Of a DNA stretch of 64,000 nucleotides, positions 1,573-56,650 are shown piece after piece (position 1 is the first letter of the stretch; the number at the start of each line of letters is the position of its first letter). The translations under genes were made by a program, and so were the position numbers. The stretch spans positions 6,306 through 70,305 of the forward strand of contig CAZYRM010000006.1 in the NCBI GenBank assembly GCA_964649705.1, written 5' to 3'. Below the pieces are notes generated by a model. It was not told where the DNA came from. It did not search any database and worked only from the letters and a program-made list of their open reading frames with translations. This stretch comes from an uncultured Planctomycetia bacterium (GTDB taxonomy: Bacteria; Planctomycetota; MHYJ01; WSZJ01; CAZYRM01).

Positions 1573-2021
1573 GCGCACAGGTAGCCTGGAGCTGCGTCGG
1601 CTGCGGGGTCCGCCTCGAGACGGAGCCCGTCGCGACGATCCCGTCCTGCCCGAGGTGCGGGGCGACGAACCCCTGGGCCCCGAGCGAGGAGGTCCTCAAC
1701 GGAAGGGGGCCGGACCGCTGCGCGGTCTGCGGACGGAGCGAGCTGTACCGGGAGAAGGTCGTGAACCGCGCCCTGGGGCTGGGCATCGTGATCGTCGCGG
1801 CCGTCCTCGCGCCGTTCACGTACTACATCAGCCTCGCCGTCGCCGCGGTCATCGACGCGCTCCTGTACCGGTTCCTAAGCGAGCGGGGGGTCTGCTACCT
1901 GTGCCGGGCGGAGTATCGCGGGTTCCCCGGAATCCCCTCGCTGGGGAAGTTCGACCTGCACGTCGCCCAGGTGATGACCCGCTACAAGTGGCCTCCTCAG
2001 GAGGCCGAGAAGCATGCTTGA
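1569..2021 (+). CDS. zinc-ribbon domain membrane protein
   Basis: GTG start overlapping upstream stop (GTGA); two CxxC pairs (CVGCG, CPRCG, CAVCG) then two TM helices. Confidence 0.45.
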   Translation: MSAQVAWSCVGCGVRLETEPVATIPSCPRCGATNPWAPSEEVLNGRGPDRCAVCGRSELYREKVVNRALGLGIVIVAAVLAPFTYYISLAVAAVIDALLYRFLSERGVCYLCRAEYRGFPGIPSLGKFDLHVAQVMTRYKWPPQEAEKHA

Positions 2022-2397
2022 CGCCGAATACAACGCGCAGGTGATGGAGCACTTCCTCAACCCGAGGAACGTCGGGGAGCTGAAGGACGCCAACGCCATC
2101 GGGACCGCGGTCAACCCGGCCTGCGGCGACACGATGAAGCTCTACATCAGGGTCGACGCCGGGCGGATCGTCGACCTCCGCTTCAAGACCTTCGGCTGAG
2201 GGGCCGCGATCGCGACGTCCTCGATGGGGACGGAGATCTTCCGTGGGAAGACGATCGACGAGGCCCTCGCGGTGACGAACGACCAGATCGTCGGCGCCCT
2301 CGGCGGCCTCCCCGAGCGCAAGGTCGTCTGCAGCGTCCTCGCCGTCTCGGCCCTCCGCGCCGCCGTCGATGAACTGCGGAAACGCGCGGGTCAGTGA
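2014..2397 (+). CDS. iscU: IscU/NifU-like Fe-S cluster scaffold protein interrupted by in-frame TGA at 2197-2199 (conserved Cys position); candidate selenoprotein or pseudogene
   Basis: N-term NPRNVG...PACGDTMKL...RFKTFG[TGA]GAAIATSSMGTEI...VVCSVLA matches the IscU core (E. coli FKTYGCGSAIASSS); same reading frame before and after TGA; GGAGG RBS 9 nt upstream of ATG 2014. Confidence 0.7.
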
Positions 2398-3914
2398 CGG
2401 AGCTTCTCGTACGCCTCCTTCAGGCGGTCCCCCAGGGGCTTCGCGTCGCGGCCGTCGTGGCACTCCGCGCAGATCGACGGCGACCCTCGCCGGATCAGCC
2501 CCTCCTCCTCGGGTGAGGCCGAATGGCGGCGACCGGGCCCGTGGCAGGTCTCGCACCCGACGTCCCGGAGGGCGGCGGCGTTCGCGTCGCGGGGCGAGTA
2601 TCCCGTCGGGTAGCCGTAGCCGGTGCTGTGGCACGTGATGCAGCCCGGGTAGTAGTGACGGTCCATGTTCTCGAGGACCTTGGTCGCGCTGCCGTGGGGC
2701 GTGGAGCTCCACTGCCGTGCCTGGGGCTCGTGGCACTTCAGGCACGCGTCCTTCCCCACGTAGCCGTCCGTGGGGTCGTTCTCCCTCGGCTCACTCGCAA
2801 AGCGGCGGGGCGCCGGTCCGGCGAGCGAGGGGTCCTCGGCGATGCGCCGCATGAACGCCTCGACCTGATCCGAGGTCCGCGCGTCCAGTTCGATCTTCTG
2901 CGCGATCTGGAACATCCCGTATGCGACGGGCGCGCCGTCGGCGCCCAGGTCGACGTAGCGGATCCCGCCGAAGCTCGACGAGGACGTCCCGAACAGCAGG
3001 AGCGGACCCACGGGCTCCATGGGGTCCTCGTAGACGACCCGGGTCCGCTCGTCCGTCAGCAGGCGGGAGGCGGCCAGGGGCCGTCCCGTCAGCACCAGGT
3101 CGGGCGGCGCGGGGAGCGCCGCGATCCGCGCGACGTCCTCGCGAGAGAGGTCCCCGGTCAGGACGACGAGGTCGCCTCGGCCCTTGAGCGGGGCGACGGC
3201 GGCGGCCGCCTGCGCGGCGGCGTCGGGGTGGCCCCAGACGGGCGGCTTGGGGCCCGCGGGCGCGACGCGCATTCCCGGCGGGGGCTCGGGGGGGCTGTCG
3301 GCGCACACGACGGAGAGGGAGCGGCCGCCCAGCGCCAGGGTCACGGGGAGGCCTCCAATCGTCAGGAGGGGAGGGCCCGCCGCGGCGAGCGAGGACTGCA
3401 GGTCGGCCGTCAGGAACCCCCTCCCGCCGCCGACGGCGAAGGCCGAGAACGGAAGGTCCTTCAGGATCGCCGCGTAGACCCGCTGTCGCTCGCGATCGAG
3501 GGGGGAGTCGCCGTCGAGCGCCCCGCCGGCGTCGATCAGCGCGGTGCGCGGCGGCCCCTTCGCGAGCCGTCGAAGGAGCGCGGCCGAGTGGGCGAAGCGG
3601 ACGTTCTGCTTGCACGCGCAACTGTCCAGGCGGGACATCGTGCCGCCGATCCACACGAGGCGCAGCTCCGCGGGGGCCTCTCGGATGGTGACGCGGACCT
3701 CGAGGCGATCCGCCTCCTCGGTCATCCGTACCGTCCGCGGAGTCGTAGGCGCGGGGGGGCGCATCGGCGCGACGACGCGCGGCGGTGAGGGGGCCGGCGG
3801 TCGTGCGGGGCGCGGAGTCCAGGCGGGGCGGGTGCCCGGCAGCGCGAGGCACACGAGCACGCCGACGCCGACCAGCAAGCTGGCCCTGCCAGTGGCGACG
3901 ATCGACCATCCCAT
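2391..3914 (-). CDS. multiheme cytochrome c family protein (4 CxxCH) with N-terminal signal peptide and large N-terminal domain
   Basis: CLKCH, CITCH, CETCH, CAECH heme-binding motifs in C-terminal 120 aa; start chosen at MGWSIVATGRASLLVGVGVLVCLA (longest ORF reaches 3986). Confidence 0.65.
   Translation of the reverse strand: MGWSIVATGRASLLVGVGVLVCLALPGTRPAWTPRPARPPAPSPPRVVAPMRPPAPTTPRTVRMTEEADRLEVRVTIREAPAELRLVWIGGTMSRLDSCACKQNVRFAHSAALLRRLAKGPPRTALIDAGGALDGDSPLDRERQRVYAAILKDLPFSAFAVGGGRGFLTADLQSSLAAAGPPLLTIGGLPVTLALGGRSLSVVCADSPPEPPPGMRVAPAGPKPPVWGHPDAAAQAAAAVAPLKGRGDLVVLTGDLSREDVARIAALPAPPDLVLTGRPLAASRLLTDERTRVVYEDPMEPVGPLLLFGTSSSSFGGIRYVDLGADGAPVAYGMFQIAQKIELDARTSDQVEAFMRRIAEDPSLAGPAPRRFASEPRENDPTDGYVGKDACLKCHEPQARQWSSTPHGSATKVLENMDRHYYPGCITCHSTGYGYPTGYSPRDANAAALRDVGCETCHGPGRRHSASPEEEGLIRRGSPSICAECHDGRDAKPLGDRLKEAYEKLRH
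3870..3893 (-). repeat. copy 1 of 24-nt in-frame element (GACCAGCAAGCTGGCCCTGCCAGT), encodes TGRASLLV in cytochrome signal region
   Basis: 22/24 match to consensus GACCAGCAAGCTGGCCTTGCCAGG. Confidence 0.7.
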
Positions 3915-4272
3915 GCCTCGTGGTCGCGGCGGCTCGGTGGACCCCGCGGTCGGGGGGGGCGGCTTGTGGGGGCGCTTCTTGGACATCGGCCTGGGGAATC
4001 CTCCTCGACGACCATGCTATCGATCGGCGAACGGAGGCTCAATCCTGTCGTTCGGCGCGGCCGGTGTTCCATGTCGGACGCGCGGGCGCAATCCCACCTG
4101 GAACCCCTGGCCGGTCCGATTTCCCTTCGGGCGCTTAACCGCCGATCGGGCAAGGCGTTCCAGTGCGAGGGGATTCCGCGCCTCGGGTGCGAGGCTTGCA
4201 CACCAATCTCCTTGATGCCCGGCGCGCCGGAACGTACCATTCGCGTTCCGGAAGGCATCCAAGGAGGCTCGG

Positions 4273-4794
4273 ATGGGTCTCGACAAGGGCCCCGACAAGA
4301 TCAGCAACATCTTCATCGGGAAGTACGAGGAGGTCGTCAAGTGGGCCCGGAGCAATTCCGTCTGGCCCATGACGTTCGGCATCGCCTGCTGCGCGATCGA
4401 GATGATGGCGACGGGCGCCTCGCGCTATGACATCGACCGCTTCGGGTCGGGCGCCTTCCGCGGATCGCCGCGGCAGTCCGACCTCATGATCGTCGCGGGG
4501 ACCGTGACCGCGAAGATGGCCCTCGTCGTGAAGCGCCTCTACGAGCAGATGCCCGAGCCGAAGTACGTCCTCGCGATGGGGGCCTGCACGGTCGGAGGCG
4601 GCCCGTACTACAAGTGGGGCTATCACGTCGTGAAGGGGATCGACAAGTTCGTCCCCGTCGACGTCCACGTCCCCGGCTGACCCCCCCGGCCCGAGTCCCT
4701 GTTGGAGGGGCTCATGCGACTGCAGGAGAAGATCCGCGCCCGCAGCATGGCCGTGCCCACGCGGGAGCCCGAGAAGTCGGCCACCGCGTCGTAG
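4273..4794 (+). CDS. nuoB: NADH-quinone oxidoreductase subunit B (NuoB/Nqo6) with in-frame TGA at 4678-4680 at the position of the 4th N2-cluster cysteine; candidate selenoprotein or pseudogene
   Basis: [21 protein letters not shown], then VDVHVPG[TGA][18 protein letters not shown] matching conserved VDVY(I/V)PGCPPRPEAL; same frame through TGA; continues to TAG 4792-4794. Confidence 0.8.
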
Positions 4795-4802
4795 GAGGAG
4801 AG

Positions 4803-5939
4803 ATGCCCGAGCTGGTCGAACGAGCCCTCGACACGGAGGAGATGTTCCTCAACATGGGGCCGCAGCACCCCAGCACGCACGGGGTGCTCCGCCTCCTCCT
4901 CAAGACCGACGGCGAGATGGTGGAGGAGATCACGCCGTACATCGGCTACCTCCACCGCTGCGCCGAGAAGATCGGCGAGAACCTGACGTACCTCCAGTTC
5001 ATCCCGTACACCGACCGCACCGACTACCTCTCCTCGATGTCCGACAACCTCGGCTTCTGCCTCGCCGTCGAGAAGCTGATGAACATCGAGATCCCGCCGC
5101 GCGCGGTCTGGCTGCGCGTGATGATGGCGGAGCTTCAGCGGATTGCCAGCCACCTGCTCGCGCTCGGGACGTTCGGGATGGACGTCGGCGCCTTCACGCC
5201 GTTCCTCTACGCCTTCCGCGAGCGGGAGATCGTGCTCAACCTCTTCGAGCAGGCGAGCGGCGCCAGGCTCCTCTACAACTACGTGCGCCTCGGCGGCGTC
5301 GCGCGCGACATCACGCCGAAGTTCGTCAAGGAGCTCCAGGAGTTCATCGACATCTTCCCGGAGCGCGTGGACGAGTACAACCAGCTCCTCACGGAGAACT
5401 CGATCTTCATCCAGCGCGCGGCGAACGTCGGCGTGCTGCCCGCCGACGTGGGGATCGCCTACGGCTGCACGGGACCGACGCTCCGCGGGTCGGGGATCCC
5501 CTGGGACGTCCGGAGGGTCGACCCTTACAGCGGGTACGACCAGTTCCAGTTCGAGGTCTGCGTCGGGAAGGGGAAGAAGGGCGCGGTCGGCGACTGCTGG
5601 GACCGGTACGAGGTCCGCATCCTCGAGATGCTGGAGTCGCTCAAGATCGTCAAGCAGGCCCTCGACGGACTGCCCGCGGGGCCGATCATCTCCCCGAAGC
5701 TTCCGAAGACCGTGAAGCCGAACAAGGGGGAGGCCTACGCGCGGATCGAGAACCCGCGCGGCGAGATCGGCTACTACATCGCCTCGGACGGCAAGGAGAA
5801 GCCGTACCGGGTGAAGGTGCGCGCCCCCAGCTTCAGCAACCTGTGCGTGCTCCCCGTGCTCGCGCGGGGGTACCTGGTCGCCGACGTGGTCGCCATCCTG
5901 GGAAGCCTCGACATCGTCCTGGGGGAGATCGATCGCTGA
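4803..5939 (+). CDS. nuoD: NADH-quinone oxidoreductase subunit D (NuoD/Nqo4), 49 kDa subunit
   Basis: MGPQHPSTHGVLRL...YLHR.AEK...ends DIVLGEIDR (NuoD-type C-terminus, no NiFe CxxC motifs); AGGAGG RBS upstream. Confidence 0.85.
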   Translation: MPELVERALDTEEMFLNMGPQHPSTHGVLRLLLKTDGEMVEEITPYIGYLHRCAEKIGENLTYLQFIPYTDRTDYLSSMSDNLGFCLAVEKLMNIEIPPRAVWLRVMMAELQRIASHLLALGTFGMDVGAFTPFLYAFREREIVLNLFEQASGARLLYNYVRLGGVARDITPKFVKELQEFIDIFPERVDEYNQLLTENSIFIQRAANVGVLPADVGIAYGCTGPTLRGSGIPWDVRRVDPYSGYDQFQFEVCVGKGKKGAVGDCWDRYEVRILEMLESLKIVKQALDGLPAGPIISPKLPKTVKPNKGEAYARIENPRGEIGYYIASDGKEKPYRVKVRAPSFSNLCVLPVLARGYLVADVVAILGSLDIVLGEIDR

Positions 5940-6472
5940 TGGTGCTCGACTACTTCAAGCAGGTCGTCCACGGCCTCTACACGGTCCTGGTGGGGATGAA
6001 GATCACCTGGCGCTACCTCTGGGTGAAGCCGGTGACGCTCCAGTACCCCGAGGAGATCTGGCATGTGCCGGACGGGTACCGCGGCTACCACGAGTACAGC
6101 GAGGCGCGGTGCATCGGCTGCTTCATCTGCGTGAAGGCGTGCCCGGTCGACTGCATCAGCATGGACATCACGCGCCAGAGCGGCGGGAAAAAGGCGATCA
6201 TCCACTCGTACGTGATCGACTTCACGAAGTGCATCTTTTGCAACCTCTGCTGCGAGCCCTGCCCGACGGAGCCGAAGTCAATTTGGATGGGCAAGGCCTA
6301 CGATATGAGCGTCCTGGCGGAGGACAAGGACAAGCTCGTGGTGGACTACTGCAAGCTCAAGACCGAGTACATCCCGTGGGCCGTGGGGGAACACATCCCG
6401 CCGTACAAGCCGGGGTCGGACGACAAGGCGCCGGAGCCGAAGGCTGCCGTTCCTGCGGGGAAGGGCGCGTAG
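5939..6472 (+). CDS. nuoI: NADH-quinone oxidoreductase subunit I (NuoI), 2x[4Fe-4S] ferredoxin subunit
   Basis: CIGCFICVKACP and CIFCNLCCEPCP motifs; ATG overlaps nuoD stop (ATGA). Confidence 0.8.
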   Translation: MVLDYFKQVVHGLYTVLVGMKITWRYLWVKPVTLQYPEEIWHVPDGYRGYHEYSEARCIGCFICVKACPVDCISMDITRQSGGKKAIIHSYVIDFTKCIFCNLCCEPCPTEPKSIWMGKAYDMSVLAEDKDKLVVDYCKLKTEYIPWAVGEHIPPYKPGSDDKAPEPKAAVPAGKGA

Positions 6473-6477
6473 GGACC

Positions 6478-7317
6478 ATGCCCGAGGCCCAGCAAGCAGG
6501 CCTTGCCAGGACCCCCCGGACACGCGCCCGCTGGCTCTGGGACGGCCCGTGGGCGCTCACGGGGAACCTCGCCAAGATTCGCGTGCTCGAGGACCTCATC
6601 GGGGAGTTCCCGAAGGGAGGACCCTCGGGGCGGGCCCGGATCCTCGACGTCGGCTGCGCGGGTCCGAGCCCTCTCAACCTGTGGGAGCCGTTCTTCGCGA
6701 GTCCTGAGGCGCCGCCGATCGAGGTCCAGGGCGTGGACGTCGACGCGGCCGGCGTGGAGGCCGTGCGGAGGCTCGCCAGGGAGCGCGGTTGGCCGCAGGT
6801 GGCTCGCCTGGAGGTCGGCTCGGCGTACGACCTGCCGCGCCTCTTCGCGCCGGGGACGTTCGACGCGGTGGTTTCGACGCAGGTGCTCGAGCACCTGGCG
6901 CGACCTGAGGAGTTCCTGCGCGGGGCGGCGGAGGTGACGAGGCCGGGCGGCCTGTGCTACGTCACGTTCGACTCGGGGCACTTCCCGTCGCACGACGCGG
7001 CCTGGAAGCGCCTCGCGCGGCGCTTGCTCGTGGCGCTCGGCAAGGAGCGGTACCACGAGAGGGGCCTGACGGAGACCGAGGTCGAGCGGATGGCGCGCGC
7101 TTGCGGTCTCTCGACGGTCGAGACGAGGTTCTACAACCTGCACGACGTGAAGCGGATCCACAACCACGGCGTCTCGGCGGACCGGAAGAACCGCCTGGCC
7201 GAGGTGTGGATGGAGCTGGAGGACTTCCTGAACGACGACCGCGCCTTCCTCGAGAGGGGAAGGCACTGGTTCGCAGGGATCTACATCAAGCTTCGGAAGT
7301 CGGAGTCGCGCCCGTAA
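6478..7317 (+). CDS. class I SAM-dependent methyltransferase
   Basis: ILDVGCAGPSPL glycine-rich SAM motif, Methyltransf_11-like; contains element copy at codons 4-11. Confidence 0.65.
   Translation: MPEAQQAGLARTPRTRARWLWDGPWALTGNLAKIRVLEDLIGEFPKGGPSGRARILDVGCAGPSPLNLWEPFFASPEAPPIEVQGVDVDAAGVEAVRRLARERGWPQVARLEVGSAYDLPRLFAPGTFDAVVSTQVLEHLARPEEFLRGAAEVTRPGGLCYVTFDSGHFPSHDAAWKRLARRLLVALGKERYHERGLTETEVERMARACGLSTVETRFYNLHDVKRIHNHGVSADRKNRLAEVWMELEDFLNDDRAFLERGRHWFAGIYIKLRKSESRP
6488..6510 (+). repeat. copy 2 of 24-nt in-frame element (CCCAGCAAGCAGGCCTTGCCAGG), encodes QQAGLAR
   Basis: sequence identity to other copies. Confidence 0.7.
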
Positions 7318-7321
7318 GGGC
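7302..7321 (+). repeat. 20-nt repeat GGAGTCGCGCCCGTAAGGGC containing TAA stop inside a GNRA-type (GTAA) hairpin; copy 1
   Basis: identical 20-mer at 8833-8852; both genes end ...ESRP*. Confidence 0.6.
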
Positions 7322-7339
7322 CCCGGGAGGATCACCGCC

Positions 7340-8848
7340 ATGCCCGACCGCCACAGGAACTTCATCCACGGGGAGTGGCGCGACGCGCGCTCCGGCCTGA
7401 CGTTCCCCGACATCAACCCGTCCGACACGGACGACCTGATCGGCTTCTTTCCCCAGTCAGGGCCCGAGGACGTCGACGACGCCGTCACGGCCGCCGCGAA
7501 CGCCCTTCCCGCGTGGCGCAGGACGCCGGCGCCGAAGCGGGCGGAGCTCATGTTCCGCGTAGGCGAGATCATGACGCGGCGCAAGGAGGAGCTCTCGCGC
7601 CTCATGACGCGGGAGATGGGAAAGGTCCTCTCGGAGGCCCGCGGCGACGTCCAGGAGGCGATCGACACCGCCTACCACATCGCGGGGGAGGGGAGGCGGC
7701 TGCACGGGATCACGACCCCCTCGGAGCTGCCCGACAAGTGGGCGATGACGATCCGCCAGCCGATCGGCGTGGCGGGGCTCATCACGCCGTGGAACTTCCC
7801 GATCGCCATCCCGACGTGGAAGAGCTTCCCGGCCCTCGTCGCGGGGTGCACGGTCGTCCTCAAGCCCGCCGAGGACACGCCGCTCTGCGCGACGGAGCTG
7901 GTCAGGGTCTTCCACGAGGCCGGCTTCCCGGCGGGGACGGTGAACCTGGTCCACGGAGGCGGTCCGGACGTCGGCGCGCCGCTCGTGAGGCACAAGGATG
8001 TCGGCGTGGTGAGCTTCACCGGGTCGAGCGAGGTGGGCCGCCAGATCGCCGAGTCGTGCGGGCGGGCGCTCAAGCGGTGCTCGCTGGAGATGGGCGGGAA
8101 GAATGCGCAGATCGTGCTCGAGGACGCCGACCTCGACCTGGCGATCCAGGGCTCGCTCTGGGGGGCGTTCGCGACGACGGGCCAGCGCTGCACGGCGACG
8201 AGCCGGATCATCGTGCAGCGCTCGATCCACGACCGATACGTCGAGCGGCTGGCGGCCGAGGCGGCGAGGGTCCGCATCGGCTACGGCCTCGAAGATGGCA
8301 TCCAGATGGGCCCGCTCATCAACGAGGGGCAGCGGACCACGGTCGCGAAGTACGTCGACATCGGCAAGGCGGAGGGCGCGCGGCTCGTCTGCGGCGGTGC
8401 GGCGTACCGGGAGGGGCGCTGCGCGCGGGGCTTCTTCTTCCAGCCGACGGTGTTCGACCGGGTCACCCCGAGCATGCGCATCGCGCGCGAGGAGATCTTC
8501 GGGCCCGTCGCCTCGGTGATCGCGGTCGATGACCTCGATCAGGCGATCCAGGTCCTGAACGGGACCTCGTACGGCCTGTCGTCGAGCATCTACACGCGCG
8601 ACGTGGCCGGGGCCTTCCGCGCGATGAGCGAGATCGAGTGCGGGATTGTGTACGTGAACGGCCCGACGATCGGCGCGGAGACGCACCTGCCGTTCGGCGG
8701 GTGGAAGGACACGGGGAACGGGCACCGGGAGGGGGGCGTGAGCGCTTTCCAGGCGTTCACCGAGGAGAAGACCATCTACGTGGATTACAGCGGCCGCCTG
8801 CAGCGGGCGCAGATAGACAACCAACCCGCCTTGGAGTCGCGCCCGTAA
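7340..8848 (+). CDS. NAD(P)+-dependent aldehyde dehydrogenase family protein
   Basis: PWNFP, GGKNA... ELGGK-like (LEMGGKNAQIV), catalytic Cys region TGQRCTA, EEIFGPV; 502 aa. Confidence 0.85.
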   Translation: MPDRHRNFIHGEWRDARSGLTFPDINPSDTDDLIGFFPQSGPEDVDDAVTAAANALPAWRRTPAPKRAELMFRVGEIMTRRKEELSRLMTREMGKVLSEARGDVQEAIDTAYHIAGEGRRLHGITTPSELPDKWAMTIRQPIGVAGLITPWNFPIAIPTWKSFPALVAGCTVVLKPAEDTPLCATELVRVFHEAGFPAGTVNLVHGGGPDVGAPLVRHKDVGVVSFTGSSEVGRQIAESCGRALKRCSLEMGGKNAQIVLEDADLDLAIQGSLWGAFATTGQRCTATSRIIVQRSIHDRYVERLAAEAARVRIGYGLEDGIQMGPLINEGQRTTVAKYVDIGKAEGARLVCGGAAYREGRCARGFFFQPTVFDRVTPSMRIAREEIFGPVASVIAVDDLDQAIQVLNGTSYGLSSSIYTRDVAGAFRAMSEIECGIVYVNGPTIGAETHLPFGGWKDTGNGHREGGVSAFQAFTEEKTIYVDYSGRLQRAQIDNQPALESRP

Positions 8849-8852
8849 GGGC
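8833..8852 (+). repeat. 20-nt repeat GGAGTCGCGCCCGTAAGGGC, copy 2; hairpin GCGCCC-GTAA-GGGCGC at 8839-8854 with stop codon in loop
   Basis: identical to 7302-7321. Confidence 0.6.
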
Positions 8853-8896
8853 GCGGTGGATCGACGCCCGTGAGGGCGTCGTATGAGGTGAACGCC

Positions 8897-9961
8897 ATGC
8901 CTGTGACTGAAGCCGACGTCCTGAAGCACCTGTCCAAGGTCGCCGACCCTGAGTTGGGACGCGACATCGTCTCGCTCGGAATGGTGAAGGACGTCAAGAT
9001 CGACGGGGGCGTCCTCGCGTTCGAGTTCGAGCTGACGACGGCCGCCTGTCCCATCCGCGAGAAGTTCGAGGGGGACGTCCGGAAGGCCGCGGAGGCGATC
9101 CCGGGCATCCGAGAGGTCCGGATCAAGGTCACCGCTCGCCCGGCGGCCGCCGGCAAGGTCGGGGCAATGATCCCGGGCGTGCGCAACGTGATCGCCATCG
9201 CGAGCGGAAAAGGGGGCGTCGGGAAGTCGACCGTGACCGCGAACCTCGCCCTCGCCCTCGCGAACGCCGGTACGCGCGTCGGCCTCATGGACGCCGACGT
9301 CTACGGGCCGAGCATCCCGATCATGTTCGGCATCACGAAGGAGAAGCCCGTCGGCGTCGGGGACAAGATCACGCCGATCGAGCGCTACGGCATCAAGATC
9401 ATCTCCGCGGGGTTCTTCATCGCGGAGGGGGAGGCGCTGATCTGGCGCGGGCCGATGCTCGCGGGGATCGTGAAGCAGTTCCTGACCGACGTCGCGTGGG
9501 GGGAGCTCGACTACCTCCTCGTCGACCTGCCCCCGGGCACCGGAGACGTCCAGCTCACGCTCTCCCAGATGATCCCGCTCACCGGCTCGGTGATCGTGAG
9601 CACGCCTCAGGACGTGGCGCTGATGGTCGCCGCGAAGGCGATCTACATGTTCCAGAAGCTTAACGTCCCGATCCTCGGGATCATCGAGAACATGGCCTGG
9701 TTCTCCTGCCCGCACTGTCACGAGCGCACCGACATCTTCGGCAGCGGCGGGGCGCGGAAGGCGGCCGACCGGGCGGGATACGTCTTCCTCGGAGAGGTCC
9801 CGCTCGACTCGGAGATCCGCGAGGCGGGGGACAAGGGGAAGCCGATCGTCCTGGCGCAGCCCGACTCGACGCTGTCGAAGGCGTTCACGCAGGTCGCCTT
9901 CAACATGGCGGGCCAGGTCTCTGTGCGCAACCTGACGACGGAAGAGATCAAGGTAGGGTAG
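8897..9961 (+). CDS. apbC: Mrp/ApbC/NBP35 family Fe-S cluster carrier ATPase with N-terminal DUF59 (MIP18-like) domain
   Basis: Walker A AIASGKGGVGKST, CPHC (FSCPHCHE) motif, DUF59-like N-term; GAGGTG RBS. Confidence 0.85.
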   Translation: MPVTEADVLKHLSKVADPELGRDIVSLGMVKDVKIDGGVLAFEFELTTAACPIREKFEGDVRKAAEAIPGIREVRIKVTARPAAAGKVGAMIPGVRNVIAIASGKGGVGKSTVTANLALALANAGTRVGLMDADVYGPSIPIMFGITKEKPVGVGDKITPIERYGIKIISAGFFIAEGEALIWRGPMLAGIVKQFLTDVAWGELDYLLVDLPPGTGDVQLTLSQMIPLTGSVIVSTPQDVALMVAAKAIYMFQKLNVPILGIIENMAWFSCPHCHERTDIFGSGGARKAADRAGYVFLGEVPLDSEIREAGDKGKPIVLAQPDSTLSKAFTQVAFNMAGQVSVRNLTTEEIKVG

Positions 9962-10028
9962 TCCCACGGAACGGATCTACCTGGACCACGCCGCGACCAC
10001 GCGCCCGCGCCCGGAGGTCCTCTCCGCG

Positions 10029-11114
10029 ATGCGGGAGGCCGACGAGCGCGCCTGGGCGAACCCGTCGAGCCTCCACGCCGACGGGATGGCCGCGCGGAGG
10101 CTCGTCGAGGGGGCCCGAGAGACGGTCGCTCGCGTGGTCGGAGGCGATCCGCGGGAAATCGTGTTCACCAGCGGGGGGACCGAGAGCGACAACCTCGCGG
10201 TGATCGGGATGGCCCGGGCGCTCCGGGCCAGGGGGCGCCACGTGGTGACCTCGCGGATCGAGCACCACGCCGTGCTGCACGCCTGCGACGCGCTGGCCAG
10301 AGAGGGCTTCGAGATTGGTTTCGTCGGCGTCTCGCCCTCCGGGGCTGTCGACCCGGACGAGGTTGCCCGCGCGCTGCGGCCCGACACGGTCCTCGTCTCC
10401 GTGATGCAGGCGAACAACGAGACCGGGGCGATCCAGCCGATCGCGGAGATCGCGCGGCGCTGCCGCGAACGCGGCGTTCTCGTCCACACGGATGCGGTGC
10501 AGGGCGCCGGAAAGGTCGCCATCGACGCGCGTTCGCTCGGCGTGGACGCGCTCTCGATCTCGGCCCACAAGCTCCACGGGCCGAAGGGCGCGGGCGCGCT
10601 CTGGCTTCGCGCGGGGGTCCCGATCGAGCCTCTCCTGCACGGAGGGGGCCACGAGCGTCAGCTCCGCGCCGGGACGGAAAACGTGGCGGGAATCGTGGGC
10701 CTCGCGCGGGCGCTGGAGCTCGCGGAGGCGGATCGCGCCGCGGACGTGCCGCGGATCGCGGCGCTCCGCAATCGACTTGAAAAGGGGATCTTGGACCGCA
10801 TCCAGGGCGTCCGCGTGAACGGCGCGAACCGCGTCGCGGGCCTGCTCAACGTCTGCTTCGACGCGATCGAGGGGGAGGGCGTCGTCCTGATGCTCTCGCA
10901 CCAGGGGATTTCATGCTCCACGGGCTCGGCGTGCACCTCGTCGAGCCGCGAGCCCTCCCACGTCCTCGCCGCGATGGGCGTGCCCCCGCGGACGGCCCAG
11001 GGCAGCGTCCGCTTCTCGCTCGGCCGCGACAACGACGAGGCGCAAATCGACGCGACGCTCGACGCGCTCGTGTCCGTCGTGCAGCGTCTCCGCGCCATGA
11101 GCCCGTTCGCGTAG
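10029..11114 (+). CDS. iscS: cysteine desulfurase (NifS/IscS class I aminotransferase V); conserved N-terminus (IYLDHAATT) lies upstream of first ATG with no canonical start
   Basis: SAHKLHGPKG (PLP-Lys), SSGSACTS active-site Cys loop; conserved region begins at about 9975 in same frame after TAG at 9954. Confidence 0.8.
   Translation: MREADERAWANPSSLHADGMAARRLVEGARETVARVVGGDPREIVFTSGGTESDNLAVIGMARALRARGRHVVTSRIEHHAVLHACDALAREGFEIGFVGVSPSGAVDPDEVARALRPDTVLVSVMQANNETGAIQPIAEIARRCRERGVLVHTDAVQGAGKVAIDARSLGVDALSISAHKLHGPKGAGALWLRAGVPIEPLLHGGGHERQLRAGTENVAGIVGLARALELAEADRAADVPRIAALRNRLEKGILDRIQGVRVNGANRVAGLLNVCFDAIEGEGVVLMLSHQGISCSTGSACTSSSREPSHVLAAMGVPPRTAQGSVRFSLGRDNDEAQIDATLDALVSVVQRLRAMSPFA
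11088..11114 (+). repeat. direct repeat A (CTCCGCGCCATGAGCCCGTTCGCGTAG), 3' end of nifS
   Basis: 25/27 identical to 12581-12607. Confidence 0.7.
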
Positions 11115-56134: not shown

Positions 56135-56650
56135 GCAGACGCCGATGATGGAGAGGATCAGCCCGGCGAGGATGAACAGCACGGGGCCGCAGATGCCGAT
56201 GGTCATCGCCCCGGCCTCCTTCTCATGGTTCTTCGCCCACTCCTCCATCTTCTTCTGGTTGGCGGCCTGATCGTTCGGGTTCTGCTGGATCTCCTCCATC
56301 AGCTTCACGAATTCGCCCATGGCGCCTCGCGCGCTGAGGGCGAAGAAGAGCATGCAGAGGACGGAGAGGATGGCGCACGAGAAGCCGAGCAGTCCGCAGG
56401 TGTTGAAGCCCGGCGCCTGCGGGGCATAGGCCGCCGGGGCGCCCGGAAACCCTCCCGGGGCCGCCGGATAGGCCGCCGGCACGCCGGGCTGGGGCGCCAG
56501 CCCGGCGACGGGCACCGGGGGCGCCGCCTGGGCGGCGTAGCACCGTGCGCAGACGATCTGCTGGCCGAAGAGGTACGATCCGTCGCGGTAGTAGCTCACC
56601 TGGCCGCAGCGGCTGCAGGTGAAGGTGTCGGTCGCCATGTCATGCTCCAC
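56030..56650 (-). CDS. hypothetical protein: N-terminal zinc ribbon (CSRCG...CARC), Pro/Ala-rich linker, C-terminal TM helices
   Basis: 206 aa ORF; overlaps 3' end of ispH by about 100 nt. Confidence 0.4.
   Translation of the reverse strand: MEHDMATDTFTCSRCGQVSYYRDGSYLFGQQIVCARCYAAQAAPPVPVAGLAPQPGVPAAYPAAPGGFPGAPAAYAPQAPGFNTCGLLGFSCAILSVLCMLFFALSARGAMGEFVKLMEEIQQNPNDQAANQKKMEEWAKNHEKEAGAMTIGICGPVLFILAGLILSIIGVCLSNVRKGLAIAGLILNGLMVLSPCLLICAASAFK

Follow-up and report, generated by a model that had tools for sequence, protein, structure and literature searches.

A candidate selenocysteine codon at the fourth cluster N2 ligand position of the complex I subunit NuoB

Cluster N2 is the last iron-sulfur cluster of complex I. 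It passes electrons to quinone at the interface of NuoB and NuoD, and hypotheses on coupling attach central importance to its unusual potential and pH dependence. NuoB is related to the small subunit of [NiFe] hydrogenases and NuoD to the large one, and the weak NCBIfam matches of the NuoB studied here to hydrogenase small subunits agree with that kinship. The cluster is held by four cysteines of a single subunit, including a tandem pair; in NUKM of Y. lipolytica these are C85, C86, C150 and C180 (PMC8042128).

Selenocysteine (Sec) in the place of a metal ligand is known from a number of selenoproteins, including FdhA, the large subunit of [NiFeSe] hydrogenase, FrhD/VhuD, HdrA, HgcB, and the HesB-like, '(2Fe-2S)-binding' and 'Fe-S cluster domain' families (PMC13188914). 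The nuoB gene described below shares with them the pairing of UGA with Cys, a stem-loop close downstream, and a position that is a metal-binding residue in the Cys homologs. However, the Sec of [NiFeSe] hydrogenase belongs to the large subunit and sits at nickel, whereas the proposed Sec of NuoB would belong to the homolog of the small subunit and sit at a [4Fe-4S] cluster.

The gene is located in the window, by which we mean the whole 64-kb stretch of DNA, from an uncultured groundwater planctomycete, that was analyzed (Table 1); related loci are designated by L numbers. The window NuoB resembles the Cys-type members of its family (NuoB, Nqo6 and NDUFS7, i.e. PSST and NUKM) in its CC...C...(C)PP ligand pattern and in the adjoining nuoD, but the fourth ligand codon, UGY in the Cys-type genes, is UGA. 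The initial annotation had reported a TGA at the fourth N2 cysteine, and alignments with the solved PSST, NUKM and Nqo6 chains bear this out: the UGA falls opposite the Cys of VPGCPP (E ~1e-58 against PDB chains), and the alignment offsets equate residue 136 with C180 of Y. lipolytica. Among the matches listed, 118 of 120 database homologs have Cys at the UGA-aligned position, as do all characterized NuoB proteins. The other three ligands, C39 and C40 of the tandem pair and C105 of GACTV, are specified by ordinary Cys codons, again as annotated. When the site is modelled as Cys, NuoB scores 240.5 bits against NCBIfam NF005012 (cut-off 116) and 236.7 bits against TIGR01957 (cut-off 142.7), and it is matched by Pfam PF01058. 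The motif VDVY(I/V)PGCPPRPEAL, previously described as universal, turned out not to be so, since the mitochondrial and alphaproteobacterial forms among the solved chains read PPTAEAL.

Table 1. Features of the nuoB region of the window, and two Cys-type nuoB genes of other loci (positions within those loci)
Feature	Position	Strand	Remarks
iscU/nifU-type Fe-S scaffold gene	2014..2397	+	own TGA stop at 2395-2397
In-frame UGA of iscU	2197-2199	+	at second cluster-ligand Cys, FKTFG-[TGA]-GAAIA
Candidate SECIS of iscU, CGUCCUC-GAU-GGGGACG	2216..2232	+	7 bp; G at loop start; UGA-to-loop distance 23 nt; -8.5 kcal/mol
UGA-spanning peptide of IscU, TFG-U-GAAIATSSMGTEIFR			U, proposed Sec; from translation
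Multihaem cytochrome c	2391-3986	-	beside the iscU-nuoB region
nuoB CDS	4273..4794	+	173 codons counting the putatively recoded UGA; ATG at 4273, TAG at 4792-4794; from translation
Proposed Sec codon of nuoB (in-frame UGA)	4678..4680	+	residue 136, at the fourth N2 Cys
Candidate bacterial SECIS of nuoB, GAGUCCCU-GUUGG-AGGGGCUC	4693..4713	+	8 bp; apical loop 4701-4705 starts with GU; UGA-to-loop distance 20 nt
nuoD	4803..5939	+	378 aa; shares the N2/quinone site with NuoB; PF00346; TIGR01962 480.9 (cut-off 459.35); NF008974 matched to its last position
NuoD database entry			MEK7866811.1, Planctomycetota MAG
nuoI-like 2x[4Fe-4S] ferredoxin subunit	5939..6472	+	177 aa; Pfam Fer4 families; TIGR01971 NuoI 98.3, below the cut-off of 113
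SAM methyltransferase	6475-7317		after nuoI
apbC/mrp	8870-9961		Fe-S biogenesis
nifS	10029-11114		Fe-S biogenesis
Cys-type nuoB of L089	8001-8540		compliant hairpin after TGT
Cys-type nuoB of L090	8001-8498		compliant hairpin after TGC

We consider it about 80% probable that this UGA is a selenocysteine codon and NuoB a Sec-containing protein. In the proposed mechanism, the hairpin behind the UGA would serve as a bacterial SECIS during translation of the nuoB mRNA and would bring SelB-GTP-Sec-tRNA(Sec) to a ribosome with the UGA in its A site. Sec would be inserted as residue 136, and translation would continue for 37 codons to the TAG. Sec136 would replace the fourth Cys ligand (VPG-C-PP) of the [4Fe-4S] cluster N2, leaving one N2 iron with a selenolate rather than a thiolate. 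The organism would be expected to possess selA, selB, selC and selD, and we infer both the actual insertion of selenium and the binding of Sec to the cluster. Plausible functional effects would be that N2 has a different potential or pH dependence, or that oxidative damage is better resisted or recovered from.

Gene callers and public databases give NuoB as a truncated protein of 135 aa. If they were right and the UGA a real stop, the product would be a 135-residue NuoB without the C-terminal helix and the fourth ligand, or nuoB would be a pseudogene in decay, and either is highly improbable in view of what follows the codon. The frame does continue past the TGA as first described: 37 further codons lead to the TAG, a 19-residue part of them is conserved among relatives, and synonymous changes that keep the frame occur among relatives on the 3' side of the TGA as well. 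Purifying selection evidently acts on the nuoB frame downstream of the putative Sec codon. Moreover, tblastn alignments to Cys-type NuoB cross the TGA in 20 loci, three diverged clades retain the TGA, and the downstream nuoD and nuoI are intact.

The window lineage itself carries the nuoB TGA in at least six independent assemblies from differing samples and projects, with sequences that differ elsewhere. The 135-aa product is identical in the Hainich groundwater assemblies (L002-L004 and L098), and the TGA is kept in two close variants, L001 (GCA_040960315.1) and L086 (a 153-kb JGI contig). Upstream of the TGA, L001 departs from the window at 20 of 130 third codon positions; 19 codon changes are synonymous and 2 are non-synonymous. 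Such recurrence, together with the like behavior of the TGA of iscU in at least six sequences, makes it extremely unlikely that the codon arose as an error of sequencing or assembly or as a nonsense mutation at strain level. Metagenomic nuoB sequences are so many, though, that a few C/T-to-A errors at this one base are to be expected, and several matches outside the three clades are singles with a weak hairpin or none (L074, L081, L083, L084 and L087) that could be errors of this kind.

The nearest Cys form is P0122, a protein of 172 aa that clusters with the truncated NuoB at 90% identity; it is 97% identical and has Cys at the site. Its contigs (L094-L097) come from four groundwater assemblies, encode a full-length NuoB with TGC, and share the window's gene order: cytochrome c, iscU, nuoB, nuoD, nuoI, methyltransferase, aldehyde dehydrogenase, apbC and nifS. 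In this sister lineage nuoB and iscU are both full length with TGC, whereas in the window lineage both have TGA. The TGA is thus inherited across diverged relatives and is exchanged for Cys in the nearest sister jointly with that of iscU, which matches the prediction for gain or loss of a Sec trait.

The in-frame TGA of iscU is likewise real, in keeping with the initial annotation. With Cys modelled at the site, the best NCBIfam match is TIGR03419 NifU_clost at 163.1 bits, below its cut-off of 187.9, followed by TIGR01999 IscU (122.5 versus 192.4, also below). Databases contain the gene as two fragments of 61 aa and 57 aa, both with precomputed matches to Pfam NifU_N (PF01592). The TGA is kept in L002, L086, L098 and L100-L103. 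The hairpin behind it passes 4/4 criteria of the bacterial SECIS (bSECIS) model described below, as do 1.6% of synonymous recodings, and its stem is invariant in six sequences (the window, L086, L100 and L101-L103), with GAU or GGU as the loop. The iscU orthologs of L094 and L089 have Cys and are without the hairpin. A soil contig (L074) contains a Cys-type iscU (2-256) some 3 kb upstream of a UGA-type nuoB (3105-3542); the recodings of the two genes are therefore not always coupled outside the window lineage.

In the bSECIS model of Zhang and Gladyshev, as summarized in PMC13188914, a stem of 4-16 bp bears a loop of 3-9 nt, a G is present at loop position 1 or 2, the UGA-to-loop distance is 16-37 nt and the energy is <= -7.5 kcal/mol. 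The nuoB hairpin passes 4/4 of these criteria with a loop of 5 nt, a stem of 8 bp, a distance of 20 nt and -13.0 kcal/mol. The initial annotation had placed the hairpin correctly, but the 7-bp stem and 7-nt loop drawn there give way to a better structure with 8 bp and a 5-nt loop. As a null, the downstream peptide was recoded at random with the window's own codon usage; 7.2% of the synonymous recodings of nuoB pass the model and 1.8% are as stable as the observed hairpin. The loop makes use of UUG, which accounts for 2.8% of Leu codons in the window, and the whole hairpin does not vary among the window, L001, L004 and L086, the four members of the clade that were compared. In the Cys sister L094, the same peptide is encoded with UCG-CUC-CUC in place of UCC-CUG-UUG, with the result that the stem acquires a G-G mismatch, the loop G is gone, and the best hairpin reaches only -0.5 kcal/mol. 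Relative to this nearest Cys sister, the candidate SECIS is specific to the UGA-bearing lineage. The remaining three Cys codons of nuoB have no compliant hairpin behind them.

On its own, however, the hairpin carries less weight than had been implied. Two distant Cys-type nuoB genes, L089 (TGT) and L090 (TGC), have equivalent compliant hairpins after the Cys codon (GAGGCCCU-GAUGG-AGGGCUUC and AGGCCCU-GUUGG-AGGGUCU, respectively), because the codons of E-A-L-x-E-G-L (GAG-GCC-CUN...GAG-GGC-YUN) are self-complementary; the bSECIS model accepts 14% of the recodings of the consensus peptide EALLEGL. The hairpin is therefore supporting evidence for a SECIS, short of proof. We rejected its use as proof on account of these equivalents and turned instead to the contrast with the nearest Cys sister and to the synonymous-recoding null. 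The hairpins of L089 and L090 could be latent or fossil SECIS elements, which might favor repeated switches from Cys to Sec; if so, a single TGY-to-TGA mutation would suffice in any Sec-decoding host. As the reason why only the fourth Cys is recoded, a latent SECIS was given little credit, its pass rate being 8-14% here versus ~10% at the tandem Cys.

Plain folding energy gives no signal, and only the model-based, position-specific hairpin test discriminates: compared with codon-shuffled sequences, the overall folding energy on the 3' side of the UGA has z = -0.04 in the window and a mean z of 0.1 in 16 UGA-type nuoB genes. Neither UGA matched a SECIS or any other Rfam family, whether in a scan of the whole window at the gathering threshold or in one of positions 1900-4900 at a permissive E-value.

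The initial annotation had also proposed a comparison with other nuoB orthologs, and this places a TGA at the same codon in several other phyla. A search of one genome per GTDB species with the degenerate pattern [VI]PG-TGA-PPRP[ED] returned 69 matches, five of which are true nuoB genes with TGA at this Cys; they belong to Desulfarculaceae (L007), Acidobacteriota (L024), Thermoanaerobaculia (L028), Fidelibacterota (L036) and Dormiibacterota (L056). With a more specific pattern, 14 of 15 matches in JGI metagenomes were of this type. At least two other diverged clades and about ten single sequences have TGA in place of this Cys codon. The Acidobacteriota clade (L024, L028, L077, L079 and L088) keeps the TGA despite differences at 25-39 of 95 third positions. 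Its hairpin, GCGGUCC-UGUAY-GGACUGC, contains a rare GGA or GCA codon and is obtained in 1.8% of recodings of its peptide. Covariation in this hairpin was not significant, with one compensatory C-G to G-C pair (L088) among five sequences and 110 of 500 shuffles as good. In the second robust clade, L080 and L085, the TGA is kept through differences at 24 of 95 third positions.

The genomic context of these genes differs from that of the window. Most UGA-type nuoB genes elsewhere are found in nuoA-nuoB-nuoC-nuoD(-nuoH) operons, whereas the nuoB-nuoD-nuoI group of the window lineage seems to stand apart from nuoA, C, H and J-N. The Dormiibacterota locus (L056, 1399-3031) has nuoD directly after nuoB and is without nuoC. 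An alphaproteobacterial or mitochondrial-type nuoB with TGA at this Cys was seen in L084 (28-62, Ga0105239_10648773), a short single contig that has no compliant hairpin and may be an error.

An explanation that dispenses with selenium is programmed or tolerated readthrough, in which a near-cognate tRNA for Trp or Cys would occasionally read the UGA and give a little full-length NuoB. All UGA-type nuoB genes read UGA-C, as forced by the Pro codon that follows, and in E. coli no stop context is leakier than UGA-C. Sec machinery was seen neither in the window nor in the 10 kb beyond its left end, and while the strict bSECIS model is passed by 12 of 22 UGA-type nuoB genes, about ten are without a compliant hairpin. 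Trp, on the other hand, would be unable to ligate the cluster, and misreading by Cys is inefficient. A single change from TGA to TGC or TGT would restore full expression, yet the TGA has lasted through the third-position divergence of the Acidobacteriota clade. The hairpins behind both UGAs of the window, improbable under recoding by the percentages given above and lost in the Cys sister, also speak against readthrough, as does the concerted change of state of nuoB and iscU. We regard readthrough as improbable, and Sec insertion remains the preferred reading.

A further rival is that UGA has become a sense codon for Cys, Trp or Gly throughout the lineage. For DNA of 69.6% G+C, TGA is under-used as a stop in the window (TAG 29, TGA 16 and TAA 2 in 47 crude ORFs); at such a high G+C content TGA usually dominates. 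However, nuoD (TGA at 5937-5939) and iscU both end at TGA, exactly where the family profiles or canonical C-termini end, and no suppressor-type tRNA was found in the window. In the 64 kb, in-frame TGAs with coding-like third-position G+C on both sides and recognizable protein context number only two, those of nuoB and iscU, and both are at Cys positions; a third match, at 56268, seems from its sequence context and G+C to resemble an antisense frame of a minus-strand gene. Global reassignment was rejected on these grounds and has hardly any probability left. Judged from the DNA of the window, the putative recoding of UGA is position-specific, and UGA remains a stop elsewhere. The argument of the initial annotation that two TGAs at Fe-S ligand cysteines are unlikely to coincide by chance holds as well, given that this is the sole such pair in the window, that both members fall on invariant Fe-S ligand cysteines and that it recurs in independent assemblies.

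Pfam scans of 40 window proteins, of the 10 kb beyond the left end (in L098) and of related loci found no SelA, SelB or SelD. Similarly, ARAGORN detected no tRNA-Sec in the window, where it reports tRNA-Phe and tRNA-Gly, in 20 related loci or in the 10 kb to the left of the window. Such absence is expected because the window is so small a sample of the genome.

Neither NuoB (PF01058) nor IscU/NifU_N (PF01592) is included in the May 2026 catalog of 119 prokaryotic selenoprotein families, whose only 'NADH:ubiquinone oxidoreductase' entry is NqrE of Na+-NQR. NCBIfam has no Sec-specific model for the NuoB or IscU family, and a full-text literature search retrieved no prior report of selenocysteine in NuoB, complex I, cluster N2 or IscU. 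NuoB would therefore constitute a new selenoprotein family that works by a known mechanism, namely a Sec/Cys pair at a metal-binding residue combined with a bSECIS. If this is true, the complex I concerned would be the first to contain selenium, and it would provide both a natural experiment on the tuning of N2 by ligand chemistry and a handle for 77Se spectroscopy. NuoB and IscU would join the prokaryotic selenoproteome as members that serve core energy and Fe-S metabolism, not thiol redox defense. The UGA-type families are found among Planctomycetota, Acidobacteriota and other phyla of soil and groundwater, and public databases presently list their genes as truncated proteins, as is the case with the 135-aa NuoB and the 61-aa IscU. 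More tentatively, the ligation of Fe-S clusters by selenium may be coordinated at the level of the lineage, with IscU and the N2 site of complex I switched jointly, and the selenolate-ligated N2 may have arisen independently in at least three phyla, perhaps favored by the latent SECIS of E-A-L-x-E-G-L in G+C-rich genomes; we hold this wider view to be possible but rather doubtful.

The nuoB-nuoD-nuoI-like trio of the window stands among Fe-S biogenesis genes (2391-11114, with iscU, apbC/mrp and nifS). None of nuoA, C, H and J-N was found among the window genes scanned, which reach to 58.2 kb of the 64 kb; these genes may lie elsewhere. The gene order of the nuoB-nuoD-nuoI region is kept in L001, L003, L089 and L094. 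The order in L089 is iscU-PSP1-nuoB-nuoD-nuoI, and L090 has a classical nuoA-B-C-D-H-J-K-L-M operon. In mitochondria, NDUFAF7 methylates NDUFS2; the Pfam families of the window methyltransferase differ from those of NDUFAF7. A stand-alone Cys-type nuoB was also observed in L092 (8001-8630), beside sufBD, sufC and Rieske genes.
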